DNA of 64,000 bases from a virus. Taxonomy: Duplodnaviria > Caudoviricetes. Positions 59,254 to 63,250 of the stretch are shown in pieces. Each line of letters starts with the position of its first letter. Within the stretch, counting starts at the first letter, position 1. A program made the position numbers and the translations under genes. Location: the IMG/VR virus record IMGVR_UViG_3300021387_000125, positions 2,762-66,761 of that record, one strand, 5' to 3'. Below the pieces are notes generated by a model. The model was not told the origin of the DNA and made no database searches. It was given only the letters and a program-made list of their open reading frames with translations.

Positions 59254-59282
59254 ATTATATCACGACATTATTTTATTGTCAA
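59254..59282 (-). promoter_or_regulatory. Sigma-A promoter with extended -10
   Basis: TTGACA-N17(...CGTGA)-TATAAT. Confidence 0.8.
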
Positions 59283-59297
59283 CAAAAAAAAGAAGTG

Positions 59298-59687
59298 CTA
59301 AATTGCACTTCTCATATTATTTATCATTTCTATTATTAAAGCTCTTTCTGCCTCTGTTTCTGTATTATGATATAAGTCTGAAATAAATTCTATCAGTTCT
59401 TGACATAAATTATCCATAGCACATATAAGTAATTGGTCTACTACTTCAAATTCTTGGTATCTCTTTTTAGTTTCTATATATTTTAAATATGCAGGTAATA
59501 TATCTGCTAATTCTGAATGTACATTATTATAAGATACGCTTTCTGATGTGTCTGAGAGCTTCATATTTCGATTTTTATTTTGCTCACGACAAATATATAA
59601 GCTCGCAAGTAAATTGCAATTCTCGAAGCTCGTAGGCTGTTCTTCCAATTCTCTAATAGTATCTTCTATCATTTCATAATCTAACAT
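59298..59687 (-). CDS. Helical hypothetical protein (cassette gene 7)
   Basis: 129 aa, GGAGG RBS. Confidence 0.7.
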   Translation of the reverse strand: MLDYEMIEDTIRELEEQPTSFENCNLLASLYICREQNKNRNMKLSDTSESVSYNNVHSELADILPAYLKYIETKKRYQEFEVVDQLLICAMDNLCQELIEFISDLYHNTETEAERALIIEMINNMRSAI

Positions 59688-59702
59688 ATTAGCCTCCTAT
59701 TA

Positions 59703-59733
59703 AAAGTAGGGGAAGCTGTTACACTTCCCCTTT
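59703..59733. terminator. Hairpin terminator
   Basis: AAGTAGGGGAAG-loop-CTTCCCCTTT. Confidence 0.55.
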
Positions 59734-59749
59734 ATATTGAGAGAGAAGA

Positions 59750-60376
59750 TTAGCGTTTAATCTTCATCATAGCTTGTTCTATAGCTTCTCTTACTTTAGG
59801 ACTTTCGGTAGTTTTAAGCATATCTTTTAATTGCTCTGCTACTTTCTGCTCTGCTGTATGTCTGCTATATCCACGTTCATAGCTGTCATAAGAGTCGTAG
59901 CTATCATATGAGCCTCTATTAGAGCCATCATAATAATTATTGTAAGAGTCATAACTATCATAGGAATCCCTACTTACATATCGTCCGTCAGCTCCACGTC
60001 CTCTTCTATAACTGTCGTTACTTTCGTAACTATCTCTGCTATAATCTCTGCTTCTGCCTCCATCACGTCCGTCAGTAGTTCCACGCTCATTAGACATACC
60101 ACGATTAGACATATTACCATAACTATCATTACTATTTCCCTCATATGCCCACATAGGCATCATTCTATTAGAATTTCCTCTAGCATTAGAGTATTCTTCC
60201 ATACTTTGCTCACTACCCTGCTGACCTTTCTTCATAAGGCTTTCTACCATAGTGATAGCTGATGATAATTTATAAACATCATCTAGTCCTTCTCTATCAA
60301 TATCGCCCTTACGAGTAATCTCATTAAGTTCGTGACAAAGTATTTCCTTTAAATCTTCATACATTCTCTTTGACAT
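59750..60376 (-). CDS. Protein with S/Y/D/R/G low-complexity core (cassette gene 6)
   Basis: Helical ends around SYDSYDSY and RG repeats. Confidence 0.75.
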   Translation of the reverse strand: MSKRMYEDLKEILCHELNEITRKGDIDREGLDDVYKLSSAITMVESLMKKGQQGSEQSMEEYSNARGNSNRMMPMWAYEGNSNDSYGNMSNRGMSNERGTTDGRDGGRSRDYSRDSYESNDSYRRGRGADGRYVSRDSYDSYDSYNNYYDGSNRGSYDSYDSYDSYERGYSRHTAEQKVAEQLKDMLKTTESPKVREAIEQAMMKIKR

Positions 60377-60390
60377 AACGATTTCCTCCT

Positions 60391-60870
60391 TTATGCGATA
60401 CGGTCAACAACTAGATTTGCGTTCTGTACATTGATAGGTGGGGCTGGTGTAGTTGTTGGCGTTGCACTTGTACTAGTGTTTTCAACACTTATGTTAAAAC
60501 AACAACCCCTTGGAACTGTAATTATTGCTGTGGAAGTCACATTGAAGTAGTTAGCATCTGATGGTGGGGCTTCACTAGCCGCCGCCGGAGTAACTACTGC
60601 TCTACTTGTAAGCACTGGTTCACCATCAATGGCTATAGCAATACTGATTGGACCTGCTGTTCCACCCTCAGGTACTGCTATATTTCCATTGAATGTTACT
60701 TGATACCTAGCAAAACAAGTAGTCGGATTATTGACTATTCCACGAAGAGTTACAATTCCACTTCCTTCTCTATGTAGTACATAACCTTTGTTACAACCAA
60801 TAGTAGTATTAAGTAATACTGGCTGATTTGGTTGTACTGTTTGAACTGGATTATAAGTAAACTCTGCCAT
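60391..60870 (-). CDS. Beta-sandwich protein, BclA-CTD/C1q-like (cassette gene 5)
   Basis: Alternating beta pattern YQVTFNGNI, ISIAIAIDGEP, ISVENTS, NANLVVDRIA; fold is inferred. Confidence 0.5.
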   Translation of the reverse strand: MAEFTYNPVQTVQPNQPVLLNTTIGCNKGYVLHREGSGIVTLRGIVNNPTTCFARYQVTFNGNIAVPEGGTAGPISIAIAIDGEPVLTSRAVVTPAAASEAPPSDANYFNVTSTAIITVPRGCCFNISVENTSTSATPTTTPAPPINVQNANLVVDRIA

Positions 60871-60885
60871 AGTCAATACCTCCTA

Positions 60886-61722
60886 TTAGAAACTTCCACA
60901 TCCACATCCGCAACCGTTGTTATTGTTGCAAGTGAATATAGGTGTTCTTCCATACACTGGAGTAGATGGTACTGGACAATTAGAAAGTCTGTTATAGAGC
61001 TGGTCTACCTCATCACTAAAGCCCTGCTGAATAAAGGCATTCTGAGCTGTCTGTGACTCTCTAAGTGTTGCCATATTAAGTTGTGAACGAAGGTTATCAT
61101 TCTCACGCTTAAATCCATCAAGTTCAAGCTGACAAAGTTTGTCAAGAACAGCCTGAGTGCTACGTGTCTGACTATCAATAATATCTCTAGTATTCTGCAT
61201 AGCCTGAGTTCTGTCTGCACAGTTTTCTGTTGCAACTGTGTATTTAAGGTCTGCAATACCAGCCCTATTCTCACAGCAACAATCCTGAAGCTGTGACTGA
61301 ATACCGAACATAGACTGCATATTAGCCATCTGTCTAGCATTAGCACCCTGCTCAACGCCTGCAAAACCATTAGCAAGAGACATCTGCATATCGCCACAAC
61401 AGTTACATAGCTGTGTACTTAACGAAGCAATGCCGTCTCTAATACTTGTGATGTTATCATTGAGCATAGCGTTCTGGAATCCATTGTTTGTGTTGTTGTT
61501 AATTCCAGACTGTCCATTAAGAAGCCAAGGAAAATCATAACCTAACATCATATTTCCATAACCTCCCATTCCACCACCGAATCCGTTGCCCCATCCGGCA
61601 AACAGAAGTAGTAGTATTATCCACCAGCCGTCTCCACCGAAGCCTGAGCCAAAACCACCCTGACCTCCATACATAGGAGCAACTGGCATTACAAGTTCGT
61701 TTGAACCATTAGATAATGACAT
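60886..61722 (-). CDS. Gly-rich/hydrophobic N-terminus + Cys-rich coiled-coil protein (cassette gene 4)
   Basis: GGDGWWIILLLLFAGWG, LCNCC, DCCC, terminal CGCGCG; 13 Cys. Confidence 0.75.
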   Translation of the reverse strand: MSLSNGSNELVMPVAPMYGGQGGFGSGFGGDGWWIILLLLFAGWGNGFGGGMGGYGNMMLGYDFPWLLNGQSGINNNTNNGFQNAMLNDNITSIRDGIASLSTQLCNCCGDMQMSLANGFAGVEQGANARQMANMQSMFGIQSQLQDCCCENRAGIADLKYTVATENCADRTQAMQNTRDIIDSQTRSTQAVLDKLCQLELDGFKRENDNLRSQLNMATLRESQTAQNAFIQQGFSDEVDQLYNRLSNCPVPSTPVYGRTPIFTCNNNNGCGCGCGSF

Positions 61723-61772
61723 AGTATTATCCTCCTTTTAAAAATATTATGTAAACTTGCAAGTATTACCGT

Positions 61773-61973
61773 TTATAATTTAATGCCCATTTTCTGAGCC
61801 ATCTGAATAGCTTGATTAAGTTTATCTTGACTAATACTTCCATTCTGTACTAAGTAATCAACTATCTGATGTGGGTCATTTTGTATCTGTTGTGGTATAT
61901 TAAATTTCTGAATAATCTGCTGAACTCTATTCATTAGATTGTTGCTTTGAGTTTCTTGATACAGTTGGTTCAT
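61773..61973 (-). CDS. Small Gln/Asn-rich protein (cassette gene 3)
   Basis: 66 aa. Confidence 0.65.
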   Translation of the reverse strand: MNQLYQETQSNNLMNRVQQIIQKFNIPQQIQNDPHQIVDYLVQNGSISQDKLNQAIQMAQKMGIKL

Positions 61974-62400
61974 TCTTAGTCTCCTTTCTACTCATTGTTT
62001 TTGGCTTTAAATTTTCTATCATACTTCTTAACTCATCTAATTCCCCACGAGTTACAAACTGTGAAGTATCTATATGTTGTTCTGTATGCTCTTCTTGTGT
62101 AGGCTGTGTCTGTACTATCTCTGTATAGTTAAACATTCTTAATGGAGCTGGTATTCCACTAATATCTGTAGACTTGATATAGAATACGTCACTCTCGCTA
62201 TCCATAAGAAGTACACTATTTCCTGGAGCTACTGGATATGCTTTCGCTCCGGCTTCACCTTGTACCCATATAATTCCGCTTGACCTATTATTTGTTATAG
62301 GTGTGTTAGATACTGTCTGTTGTACTTGTGGGTATTGCTGTTGATAATTTACCGGCATCTGATAATTTGGTGCAGGTAGTCCATAGTTATAAATTGCCAT
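61927..62400 (-). CDS. Q/P/Y-rich N-terminus + conserved domain (cassette gene 2)
   Basis: WVQGEAGAKAYPVAPG..VLLMDSE; start moved to MAIYN. Confidence 0.7.
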   Translation of the reverse strand: MAIYNYGLPAPNYQMPVNYQQQYPQVQQTVSNTPITNNRSSGIIWVQGEAGAKAYPVAPGNSVLLMDSESDVFYIKSTDISGIPAPLRMFNYTEIVQTQPTQEEHTEQHIDTSQFVTRGELDELRSMIENLKPKTMSRKETKNEPTVSRNSKQQSNE

Positions 62401-62401
62401 T

Positions 62402-62782
62402 TTAATTCTCCTCTCTCTTCCAATATGCGATTGGTACTTCTTGTCCACTATCCCAGCTATCGAAGTAGTCTCCATCTTCTACCGCAACTACGTGTGAACC
62501 AGTTGCTAGTAAATAAGTGCCTGATGGAAAATCTTTAGTAAAATCTTCTACTGTATAACAATCTGGACAAGTATTAGGTATTACATACTGAACAAAGCCC
62601 TTGCTTCTTAGATATGCACCCCATATATGATTTGCTGATGGCATATCTTTCATCATATAGCCTTGTATTGCTACACCTAAATATGTGGTGTCCCAATCTT
62701 GATTAGTTACTTTTGCGATTGCTCTAATAACACAATCTCCTACATAGTTACTTTGAGGGTTTGGGTTGTATGGTACATACAT
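62402..62782 (-). CDS. Papain/C39-like cysteine peptidase (cassette gene 1)
   Basis: GDCVIRAIA (Cys) ... GSHVVAV (His) ... DSWDS (Asp); start moved to MYVPY. Confidence 0.55.
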   Translation of the reverse strand: MYVPYNPNPQSNYVGDCVIRAIAKVTNQDWDTTYLGVAIQGYMMKDMPSANHIWGAYLRSKGFVQYVIPNTCPDCYTVEDFTKDFPSGTYLLATGSHVVAVEDGDYFDSWDSGQEVPIAYWKREEN

Positions 62783-62988
62783 CTTTCTTTTCTCCCTCCT
62801 TTTTCTGCGACAAAATAAAAAGAGCATATACTGACGAACATTTGTTCTGTGACATTATGTAAACTAATCGCTTACTTATATCCTGCATAGTATATGCTCC
62901 TTTCATCTGATATATTTAATTGTAATTAAAAACAGCTATCGCAACTTACACGATAACTGTTTAAAAATTGTACAATAATTGCATAATA

Positions 62989-63020
62989 AAAAGAGTGCCT
63001 ATCAAACGATAGACACTCTC
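62989..63020 (-). terminator. Rho-independent terminator after the HTH gene
   Basis: GAGAGTGTCTATCG TTT GATAGGCACTCT then TTTT. Confidence 0.65.
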
Positions 63021-63049
63021 GTATTGGGGTAACATATAGCGTAGAAGGG

Positions 63050-63250
63050 CTATACAACTCGGAGCATTTTTGACTTGACTTTACGTGCTAATTTACTCAC
63101 CTTACTTTCGCTTACGTGCATCTCTAAAGCTATCTGAACATTAGATAGACCTCTCGCACGTAGTTCAAAATATTCTTCTTCATCAGGCGTAAAATTACAT
63201 AGATGCCTAAACATATCCAACTCCGGCATTGTAAAGTCATATATCTGCAT
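63050..63250 (-). CDS. Stand-alone LuxR/GerE-type HTH protein
   Basis: T.DEE.YFELRARG.SN.QIA.EM.VSES.V. Confidence 0.75.
   Translation of the reverse strand: MQIYDFTMPELDMFRHLCNFTPDEEEYFELRARGLSNVQIALEMHVSESKVSKLARKVKSKMLRVV

Follow-up and report, generated by a model that had tools for sequence, protein, structure and literature searches.

We examined a 64,000-nt stretch of viral DNA (IMG/VR record IMGVR_UViG_3300021387_000125; hereafter the window), which covers most of a 66.8-kb siphovirus genome and has all its genes on the minus strand, and found that seven genes at 62782-59298 form a self-contained cassette that is exchanged horizontally between phages and has a promoter-like motif in common with packaging and head genes. 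In order of transcription the cassette encodes a papain-like peptidase (pep126), a Gln/Pro/Tyr-rich protein (QPY157), a small Gln/Asn-rich protein (sm66), a Gly- and Cys-rich helical protein (GC278), a jelly-roll protein that we call the knob (bs161), a protein with SY[DEGNR] repeats (SYD208) and a last protein of 129 aa (hel129). We tentatively favor the explanation that these genes are a late operon that builds a rod-and-knob material of its own in the cytoplasm, independently of both the virion and sporulation.

An earlier reading of the letters alone (the sequence-only reading) had proposed an uncharacterized, self-contained module at this position, and our analysis supports it. The eight open reading frames of that reading, the seven cassette genes and a preceding helix-turn-helix (HTH) gene, were all confirmed on the minus strand, with the residue compositions it gave. 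The seven products had no match in Pfam (E 0.1), in NCBIfam above cut-off or among the PADLOC models of known anti-phage defense systems (E 0.01), apart from five weak, mutually unrelated sub-threshold Pfam matches of sm66 (E 0.008-0.04). Five of the seven matched PHROGs of unknown function, no Rfam family was found in the cassette region, and no signal peptide was apparent on reading the product sequences. Family-profile matches to PDB sequences were rejected as chance (streptogrisin, glutaredoxin at the CPxC motif of pep126, Med21 over a helical stretch at E 8e-4, and eIF3h). We found no paper describing the cassette.

Distribution and mobility of the cassette

Relatives of GC278 form at least 8000 clusters at 90% identity in a set of 5.8 billion proteins, and every named match is a "hypothetical protein". 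These numbers, combined with strong conservation, place the cassette among the commonest conserved gene sets without a function in gut and rumen Firmicutes phages; the sequence-only reading had stated that similar hypothetical genes recur in gut Firmicutes phages, and it was right. We compared 161 loci, made up of 81 viral loci (80 viral contigs and Butyrivibrio phage Ceridwen) and 80 loci on contigs of metagenome-assembled genomes (MAGs) from animal guts. The order peptidase, QPY157, (sm66), GC278, knob is kept in about 75 of the 81 viral loci and in most of the 80 MAG loci. In a deep variant, represented by some 15-20 AT-rich loci, the peptidase has moved to the end and GC278, the knob and the protein that follows it (the +1 protein) are retained. 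Homology to the variant cassette was supported by hhalign for the knob (99.1%) and for the +1 protein, which is SYD208 in the window and a Y/G/R-rich protein in the variant (97.6%, E 4e-12); homology of QPY157 to its counterpart there was unsupported (4%) and was dropped.

The carriers themselves are diverse. Three complete phages encode a GC278 that is 48-67% identical to that of the window, yet no capsid, portal or terminase was found in common at E 1e-4, and only a weak 25% tape-measure match connects them with the window phage. The cassette is therefore mobile and independent of any given virion, and its conservation far exceeds that of its carriers' capsid or terminase genes. Its neighbors are holins, endolysins and a small HTH gene upstream, and an opposite-strand integrase (in 8 viral and 13 MAG loci) or early genes downstream. 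Phage Ceridwen carries the cassette and four of five phages isolated on the same Butyrivibrio strain do not; the Ceridwen paper lists the cassette genes as hypothetical and contains no virion proteomics. In the cultured human-gut isolate Vescimonas fastidiosa MM35 the complete cassette is the last block of a prophage (L178:5669-8783, at about 251.4-254.5 kb of pMM35_01), directly 5' of genes for lactate permease and lactate dehydrogenase, miaB and mutL. The peptidase gene of this copy falls in a stretch for which the plasmid table lists no gene, and the prophage, on an 861-kb replicon, was the single match in the plasmid search.

A promoter-like motif in common with packaging and head genes

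The 12-mer AGTTTACATAAT occurs in seven exact copies in the window, all on the minus (coding) strand, and allowing one mismatch gave 11 matches compared with 1.9 ± 1.4 in shuffled sequences. Two exact copies lie in the cassette, one at 62854-62865, 71 nt 5' of the pep126 ATG at 62782, and the other at 61746-61757, 23 nt 5' of the GC278 gene. Outside the cassette the motif precedes terL, the terS operon and the scaffold/major-head genes and recurs in the island of small genes between terS and terL; no exact copy was found in the replication block. The cassette and the packaging/head genes thus have a promoter-like 12-mer in common, as the sequence-only reading had noted for two cassette genes, and the genes that bear it are probably expressed late.

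The cassette is also set apart physically. Transcription runs from the endolysin gene (from 63823 upward) through two holin-like genes (63821-63459 and 63457-63251) to the gene for the 66-aa protein HTH66 (63050-63250), the final gene of the lysis operon, and a terminator-like hairpin on the minus strand at 62991-63020 (13-pair stem, 4-nt loop, T run) separates this operon from the cassette. Two more such hairpins follow SYD208 (59708-59731, 9-pair stem) and hel129 (59290-59313), the second of which closes the presumed late region, and eight were counted in the 7-kb region compared with 2.8 ± 1.3 in shuffles. Next comes a sigma-70 promoter at 59254-59282 (TTGACA-17-TATAAT with TG, 12 of 12 positions) ahead of the SNF2 helicase gene, which marks the beginning of the replication-side gene block. 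Both the hairpin boundaries and this new promoter had been called by the sequence-only reading. All seven cassette genes have strong, AGGAGG-type ribosome-binding sites, and the G+C content of the window peaks within the cassette (39% at 60001-62000, 30-36% elsewhere), which fits either products rich in Gly, Ala, Pro, Cys and Arg or a foreign origin.

bs161 has a predicted jelly-roll fold closest to exosporium proteins

The knob protein bs161 (60391-60870, minus strand; 159 aa from its ATG; PHROG 20016) was modeled with AlphaFold2, as a monomer like pep126 below, at a predicted local distance difference test (pLDDT) score of 89.3, and has a jelly roll of the TNF/C1q type. Foldseek matched the model to F-BclA (9h38), ExsFA (7r1m), BxpB (8d02) and BclA (1wck) at E-values of 2e-6 to 3e-5. 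VIA-align gave Z scores of 15.9 for F-BclA, 14.7 for BclA, 13.9 for EDA, 13.4 for ExsFA and 13.2 for C1q, compared with 9-12 for the knobs of phage fibers. The BclA-type head that the sequence-only reading had suspected in this β-sandwich protein is thus present, with F-BclA, BclA and ExsFA as the best matches. By sequence, bs161 matched neither Pfam BclA_C (E 0.1) nor any NCBIfam model (E 1), and a profile of 63 family members found no relative in the PDB. Conserved features of the family are C26, the vicinal pair C123-C124 and a Thr/Pro-rich loop (alignment A1). No collagen-like GXY stalk was seen on reading any cassette product, and a search for fused, longer forms of bs161 gave only two, both chimeric-looking singletons. 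Stand-alone relatives are numerous in gut-phage metagenomes, in phages labeled sipho-, myo- and podovirus.

Four phages of the variant type encode, 3' of the cassette and in its orientation, two or three glycosyltransferases (GT2, a GT1+GT2 fusion, DUF4422) together with a methyltransferase (L118:11444-13699, L126:10333-12619, L146:10650-12970, and L108 from 3413). This link is rare, at about 4-7 of the 161 loci; in such phages the Thr/Pro-rich loop of the knob could be O-glycosylated.

The knob fold raises the question of whether rod and knob form an accessory side fiber, head fiber or whisker that joins the completed particle, binds host-surface glycans and is exchanged between phages of related hosts. 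TNF/C1q-like knobs end many phage fibers (the short fiber of cyanophage A-1(L), Z 11.9; TM4 gp23; the receptor-binding protein of phage 1358; PRD1 P5), modules for receptor binding are well known for moving between phage genomes, relatives of knob size that stand alone come from phages of all three labels, and the promoter-like motif is that of the head and packaging genes. We nevertheless consider a virion appendage unlikely. The cassette's position is not in the tail module but 3' of the lysis genes and a terminator, fusions of the knob to a fiber shaft are all but absent, and it would be unusual for a fiber to come with a peptidase of its own, three low-complexity proteins and a Gly-rich hydrophobic segment. 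Four of the five phages from the Ceridwen strain do without the cassette, and because the carriers have no detectable capsid, portal or terminase in common, beyond the weak tape-measure match, no common docking partner is visible.

GC278 is the conserved core protein

GC278 (60886-61722, minus strand; 278 aa; PHROG 16490) is the core protein of the cassette and contains 13 Cys and 37 Gly, with 22 of the Gly in the first 80 residues. Its N-terminus is a conserved peptide of the type MVMPVAPMYGG followed by a Gly-rich segment with the hydrophobic core WWIILLLLF, its middle is proline-free, helical and Q/N-rich with CNCC and CCC clusters, and its C-terminus is near-invariant (CPVPxxPVYGRTPIFxC...GCGCGC). 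The proline-rich peptides at the two ends are the most conserved parts (alignment A3). A search of 1.84 billion representatives with the C-terminal motif gave 173 clusters at 50% identity, essentially all of them members of the GC278 family, and in nearly all matches listed the motif stood at the C-terminal end of the protein; the exceptions were four long matches, which we rejected as unrelated repeat proteins. Most relatives have Y-G-G near residue 20 and then the Gly-rich hydrophobic stretch, and this Y-G-G lies outside the columns conserved at ≥90%. The Kyte-Doolittle maximum of GC278 is 1.38 over 19 residues, a marginal transmembrane signal. The sequence-only reading had described a coiled coil; residues 85-245 are indeed proline-free, but their hydrophobic period is 3.75-3.85 rather than 3.5, and a canonical coiled coil is not upheld.

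With its hydrophobic N-terminal segment, helical body and cysteines, GC278 resembles an i-spanin in outline, with lambda Rz as the basis of comparison. The cassette might accordingly be an accessory to lysis or to the envelope, in which a membrane-anchored helical protein and its partners would act on the envelope in a spanin-like manner, when the holin triggers or later, or mask receptors so that progeny do not re-adsorb to debris. Its position directly 3' of the holin and endolysin genes, here and in the other loci with recognizable lysis genes, is in keeping with this role, and lysis modules, like the cassette, are host-matched and mobile. However, the indicated hosts are single-membrane Firmicutes that need no spanin, no lipoprotein partner was found and no lipobox was seen on reading any cassette product, a terminator and a promoter-like motif of its own delimit the cassette from the lysis genes, and neither the low-complexity proteins nor a TNF-like knob has a known role in lysis. 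We regard a lysis function as distinctly improbable.

pep126 is a predicted minimal papain-like peptidase linked to GC278

The pep126 frame was listed as 62402-62827, and a Shine-Dalgarno sequence places its start at 62782, giving a protein of 126 aa (62402-62782, minus strand; PHROG 3754). The AlphaFold2 model had a pLDDT of 95.6, and the best 50 structural neighbors were all papain-like cysteine peptidases (plus apo YopQ). Foldseek ranked YopQ first and C39 domains next, weakly (probability 0.66-0.90), and Z scores were 7.1 for Josephin-2, 7.0 for the C39 domain of PCAT1, 6.9 for AvrPphB, 6.7 for the C39-like 3erv, 6.5 for LahT150 and 6.3 for ComA. D16, C17, R20, W30, H97 and D108 are invariant in 56 sequences and a CPxC motif is nearly so. 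By its model, pep126 is a minimal papain-like Cys-His-Asp peptidase of clan CA. The C39-like peptidase of the sequence-only reading therefore stands as regards the papain-like fold, the triad and the presence of C39 domains among the neighbors. C39 itself is one candidate family among several: PF03412 gave no Pfam match at E 0.1, and the Z scores do not separate the families. In a protein-atlas cluster near pep126 (score 0.91), auto-named "Peptidase C39-like", PF03412 was assigned to 20% of the members.

The CPxC motif (residues 72-75) lies in a loop just before helix 78-84 of the model and recalls redox-active dithiols; the stretch gave a glutaredoxin sequence match at E 0.17.

The pep126 gene is present in 75 of 81 viral and 67 of 80 MAG loci, and pep126 and GC278 are the most constantly linked pair of the cassette, even where the gene order changes. 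Two fusions (P0121, 347 aa, on three contigs, and P0129) join peptidase residues 1-98 to GC278 from the hydrophobic segment onward, with the two intervening genes missing; because the catalytic Asp is lost, they are probably deletion products. Other forms of the peptidase include a duplicated version (about 380 aa) whose C-terminal domain is unrelated, as well as stand-alone relatives, 33-38% identical, in Bacillus phage KoopaTroopa (L176:4971-5375), Geobacillus phage GBK2 (L177:4980-5369) and Prevotella Lak megaphages. The neighbors of the relative in Tsamsa-like Bacillus phages are a gene for a Ser/Thr kinase and one whose annotation is the DNA mimic Ocr, and in GBK2 the relative sits at the late/early junction. 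These relatives and the Josephin-like fold leave room for a separate role of the peptidase family, for example in cutting a ubiquitin-like tag.

C39 domains, Josephin and UfSP are known to cut after Gly-Gly. The pairing of peptidase and GC278 could be of a bacteriocin type, in which pep126 cuts off a leader ending in Gly-Gly and so frees the Gly-rich hydrophobic N-terminus of GC278 for insertion into the membranes of neighboring cells and the knob binds the target; no transporter would be needed because the cell lyses. The double-glycine peptidase domains of PCAT1, ComA and LahT150 among the nearest structures, the name of the neighboring atlas cluster, the constancy of the pair and the Y-G-G some 20 residues in, before a Gly-rich hydrophobic stretch, all fit such a toxin, and toxins released by phage lysis sit beside lysis genes, as the cassette does. 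Against this, the GC278 leader, with prolines at -5 and -8 and without Glu at the latter position, departs from the helical double-glycine consensus, its Gly-Gly falls outside the most conserved columns, and the peptidase lacks the Pfam C39 match. GC278 is also far larger than known leader-processed bacteriocins, the cassette holds no small membrane gene of the immunity type, five further conserved genes are left unaccounted for, and killing bystanders would be of little use to a strictly lytic-type phage. We judge this explanation improbable.

Low-complexity and small proteins

Of the remaining products, QPY157, sm66 and SYD208 combine low-complexity or prion-like sequence with short folded parts. 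QPY157 (61927-62400, minus strand; 157 aa from a Shine-Dalgarno-preceded start; PHROG 21718) begins with a prion-like stretch rich in Q/P/Y/N, has a conserved domain of 55 aa at its center and ends in a charged tail (alignment A4); it is encoded in 70 of 81 viral loci and had no match among PDB sequences. sm66 (61773-61973, minus strand; 66 aa; PHROG 22984) contains 23% Q and 12% N (Q+N 35%) and was found by BLAST in 45 of the 81. Over residues 39-66 it weakly resembles the MshE-type cyclic-di-GMP-binding motif, below threshold (E 1.5e-4; 21.5 bits, cut-off 38) and without the Arg-Leu-Gly that leads the motif. SYD208 (59750-60376, minus strand) has ten SY[DEGNR] triplets in an S/Y/D/R/G low-complexity core flanked by helical N- and C-terminal parts, and its family directly follows the knob gene in 62 of 81 loci. 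The last slot, loosely attached (the +2 family), is occupied here by hel129 (59298-59687, minus strand; 129 aa, 4 Cys), described as helical by the sequence-only reading, which has BLAST relatives in 10 loci; in 34 loci a second family of about 109 aa takes its place. Their common N-terminal pattern AIxECEG..C.KLA..YTI, the only feature on which the comparison rests, suggests that the two families may be related.

Candidate regulators of the cassette

HTH66 scored 22.8 bits with Pfam GerE (cut-off 23.5), 19.2 bits with Sigma70_r4_2 and 24.1 bits with the NCBIfam model for region 4 of extracytoplasmic-function sigma-70 factors. The lone LuxR-type HTH protein of the sequence-only reading is a predicted stand-alone LuxR/sigma-region-4 HTH whose GerE score is just under the Pfam cut-off. 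A small HTH protein (66-90 aa) occupies this slot in 54 of 81 viral loci; the commoner type is represented by 34 proteins, 26 with a match to Sigma70_r4 and 5 with one to the Mor family. HTH66 is a candidate regulator of the cassette, and the perfect 10-bp palindrome ACTTGCAAGT (61755-61764, minus strand), which overlaps the second 12-mer, is a candidate operator for a dimeric HTH protein. A palindrome with a GC core (TGCGCA, TTGCAA, GTGCAC or GCGCGC) stands 5' of the GC278 gene in 53 of 81 loci, compared with 10% of control windows, about 9 nt 5' of a -10-like element without a -35 box; in locus L006 it reads TCTTGCAAGA, with its symmetry preserved. Such palindromes may be the operator of the small sigma-region-4 protein encoded upstream.

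The GC278 genes of 21 of the 81 loci have a conserved leader composed of ACCGAC, a variable hairpin, CCGCTAACCTA, an A-rich spacer and TATAGGAGG (alignment A5; for example L021:5830-5935, L019:6899-7004 and L025:4442-4547, plus 18 more loci). Compensatory changes affect 8 of the 12 predicted pairs, and the ribosome-binding site could be partly hidden by a 4-bp CCTA/TAGG helix. The leader is absent from the window and had no match in Rfam.

The cassette is not confined to phages of spore-formers

The sequence-only reading linked the cassette to the spore surface, and here our results depart from it. The nearest 30 protein-atlas clusters of both GC278 and pep126 are viral, all 161 loci are phage or prophage, the cassette follows lysis genes where these are recognizable and never lies in a sporulation locus, and no N-terminus fits the exosporium-leader model TIGR03720 (tried with whole GC278 and with the first 50 residues of six variants, E 10).

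Host data point the same way for individual carriers. The indicated hosts are Butyrivibrio and Vescimonas, and MAG labels are mostly Clostridia and other Firmicutes; many labels were implausible (Paludibacteraceae, Alphaproteobacteria, Spirochaetaceae), and labels alone were discarded as host evidence and used only with contig-level checks. The sequence-only reading had asked how common the cassette is in phages of non-sporulating hosts. It does occur there, in Ceridwen, whose host Butyrivibrio fibrisolvens is not known to form spores, and in a prophage of a Lachnospiraceae MAG; its frequency is a count with no matched background. Two Lachnospiraceae MAGs lack spoIVA, spoIID and the genes for small acid-soluble spore proteins (SASP), and in one of them (G009) the cassette lies in an integrated prophage with bacterial flanks on a 93-kb contig. 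All six Lachnospiraceae-labeled MAGs tested lack spoIVA, including the holders of L083 and L089, the contigs closest to this phage. Overall, spoIVA was present in 30 of 55 cassette-holding MAGs and absent from 25, numbers that have no matched background rate and are limited by MAG incompleteness and binning errors. Because labels and completeness are weak and a background rate is lacking, we conclude no more than that the module is not exclusive to spore-formers. Three spore-former MAGs (G005, G006 and G008; loci L110, L140 and L122) have two to four GC278 loci each and the two marker-less MAGs one each, in a small sample.

That the cassette is a spore-surface kit, whose products would be deposited on the coat or exosporium as infected or carrier cells form spores, in step with the parS sites cited by the sequence-only reading, now seems very improbable. 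In its favor, the knob finds its closest structural matches among exosporium proteins, the composition (Cys-, Tyr- and Gln-rich, no signal peptides) recalls coat proteins, and the spoIVA count and the multiple copies in three spore-former MAGs would suit it. It is opposed by the viral company of the genes in the atlas and in all loci, the missing exosporium leader and collagen stalk, the occurrence in Ceridwen and in a prophage of a MAG without spoIVA, spoIID and SASP genes, and the six Lachnospiraceae-labeled MAGs. The motif in common with terL and capsid genes likewise suggests a cell near lysis rather than one in sporulation.

A proposed rod-and-knob assembly

The explanation that we tentatively favor, a mobile late operon with a rod-and-knob product, would work as follows. 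The 12-mer of the packaging and head genes would drive the operon, and a further layer of control would come from the palindrome of the GC278 gene, the probable target of the upstream-encoded small sigma-region-4 HTH protein. GC278 would be the central, abundant, helical and cysteine-studded subunit of the rod, held by its short Gly-rich hydrophobic segment in the cell membrane or in the hydrophobic core of the assembly. A bs161 trimer would dock on one of the proline-rich peptides of GC278 (N- or C-terminal), much as ExsF holds the proline-kinked leaders of BclA and F-Anchor in an inter-subunit cleft (PMC12357932). pep126 would trim GC278, most likely after the Gly-Gly near residue 20, the kind of site cleaved by its nearest structural neighbors (C39 domains, Josephin and UfSP), in parallel with BclA, which loses its first 19 residues (PMC12357932), and QPY157, sm66, SYD208 and hel129 may serve as matrix, assembly partners or chaperones. 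The CC, CCC and CxCxC clusters would permit disulfides outside the reducing cell, and vicinal cysteines of rod and knob alike could lock the assembly, like the double-cysteine N-terminal connector carried by Ena subunits (PMC12357932), and the structure would be exposed once the holin and endolysin encoded upstream open the cell. What we observe is the anatomy of the operon, its synteny and mobility, the 12-mer in common, the conserved residues and the two folds; trimer, docking, cleavage site, disulfides, place of action and benefit to the phage are what we infer from them.

Several findings count against this proposal. The hydrophobic segment of GC278 is too short for a confident transmembrane helix, and the hydrophobic period of the rod differs from the heptad value of 3.5. 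The N-terminal peptide, with two prolines, fits the helical double-glycine leader consensus poorly, and it is without the exosporium leader of TIGR03720. The Z scores of pep126, at about 7, fail to separate C39 from other clan CA families, and in Tsamsa-like Bacillus phages, GBK2 and Lak megaphages no other cassette gene accompanies its homologs, so that the enzyme family is not bound to GC278. Finally, in the strongly reducing rumen disulfide locking may never occur. The probability left over by the five readings considered so far belongs to explanations outside them.

A bolder idea, to which we give little chance, is that the cassette is a phage-borne coat kit, portable and self-assembling, that comprises the cysteine-studded rod, the BclA/ExsF-like knob, prion-like matrix proteins and a peptidase for maturation. 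Late in infection the kit would form a material resembling an exosporium or ENA fibers, either enclosing progeny particles or cell remnants or filling the space between them. Outside the gut, oxygen would harden this material through disulfides, and virions, whatever their morphology, would be protected or clustered while passing from one animal to the next. Bacterial viruses would then have an equivalent of occlusion or nap structures.

If the cassette does build an extra-virion structure, its product would form a class of its own, new to phages, next to the genes for virion, lysis, replication and counter-defense, and would be the first phage use of the exosporium-type knob fold as a stand-alone part. 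Two culturable systems carry it: B. fibrisolvens DSM 3071 with Ceridwen, and V. fastidiosa MM35, whose prophage has the full set.

Comparison with known systems

Like the terminator-insulated moron-type cassettes of temperate Firmicutes phages, which are found where lysis genes adjoin the attachment site, the cassette sits between the lysis genes and either an opposite-strand integrase or bacterial DNA, and it has its own promoter-like motif, terminators, higher G+C content and a history of exchange between unrelated phages. It differs in comprising six to seven co-adapted genes instead of one or two, in its retention by lytic-type phages with the motif of head and packaging genes, and in that no toxin, defense or exclusion family was detected in it.

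The HTH slot recalls the small late or middle activators of phages, such as Mor and C of Mu, and the stand-alone LuxR-type HTH protein GerE, in that a small HTH protein of 66-90 aa is encoded and, as at promoters of the Mor/C type, a dyad lies beside a promoter lacking a -35 box, here about 9 nt from the -10-like element. The slot proteins are half the size of Mor, however, and the dyad is nearer the -10 element than the Mor site; HTH66 scores just below the GerE cut-off, and its DNA binding is putative. GerE modulates sigma-K-dependent coat genes in the mother cell; the promoter-like motif of the cassette is a 12-mer that recurs across the phage, packaging genes included.

pep126 has the minimal papain-like fold, of about 125-150 residues, of the C39 domains of PCAT1, ComA and LahT150 and of Josephin and UfSP, with Cys near 17, His near 97, Asp about 11 residues later and Z scores of 6.3-7.1, and its likely substrate, GC278, has a Gly-Gly about 20 residues from the start. 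It differs from them in that it has no sequence-profile match, is not fused to a transporter and has homologs that stand alone in other phages. To our knowledge, the near-invariant CPxC of pep126 is absent from the C39, Josephin and UfSP families.

The S-ENA and L-ENA appendages of endospores are built from DUF3992/DUF4183 subunits, which the cassette does not encode; it is of phage origin, no helical pilus is predicted from it, and its disulfides are putative. The likeness lies in the combination of a β-sandwich with vicinal-Cys peptides, seen here in C26 and C123-C124 of bs161 and in the CC, CCC and CxCxC clusters of GC278.

A further comparison is with the exosporium anchoring set of the Bacillus cereus group, ExsFA/BxpB-BclA-F-Anchor-F-BclA (7r1m, 8d02, 9h3d, 1wck, 9h38). 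Sequence identity is only 12-15%, the cassette has no BclA_C domain, collagen repeats or exosporium leader, GC278 has no relative among exosporium proteins, and the cassette consists of phage genes beside a lysis module, some in hosts without sporulation genes. ExsY and CotY are cysteine-rich, as are the neighbors of bs161. Both sets lack signal peptides and point to assembly in the cytoplasm, on the cassette side from the genes alone. bs161 has the same jelly roll (Z 13.4-15.9; root-mean-square deviation 1.9-2.5 Å over 124-131 residues) and, like ExsFA, is a stand-alone, stalkless protein of about 160 aa, its presumed partner GC278 has conserved proline-rich peptides, and the cassette includes a protease.

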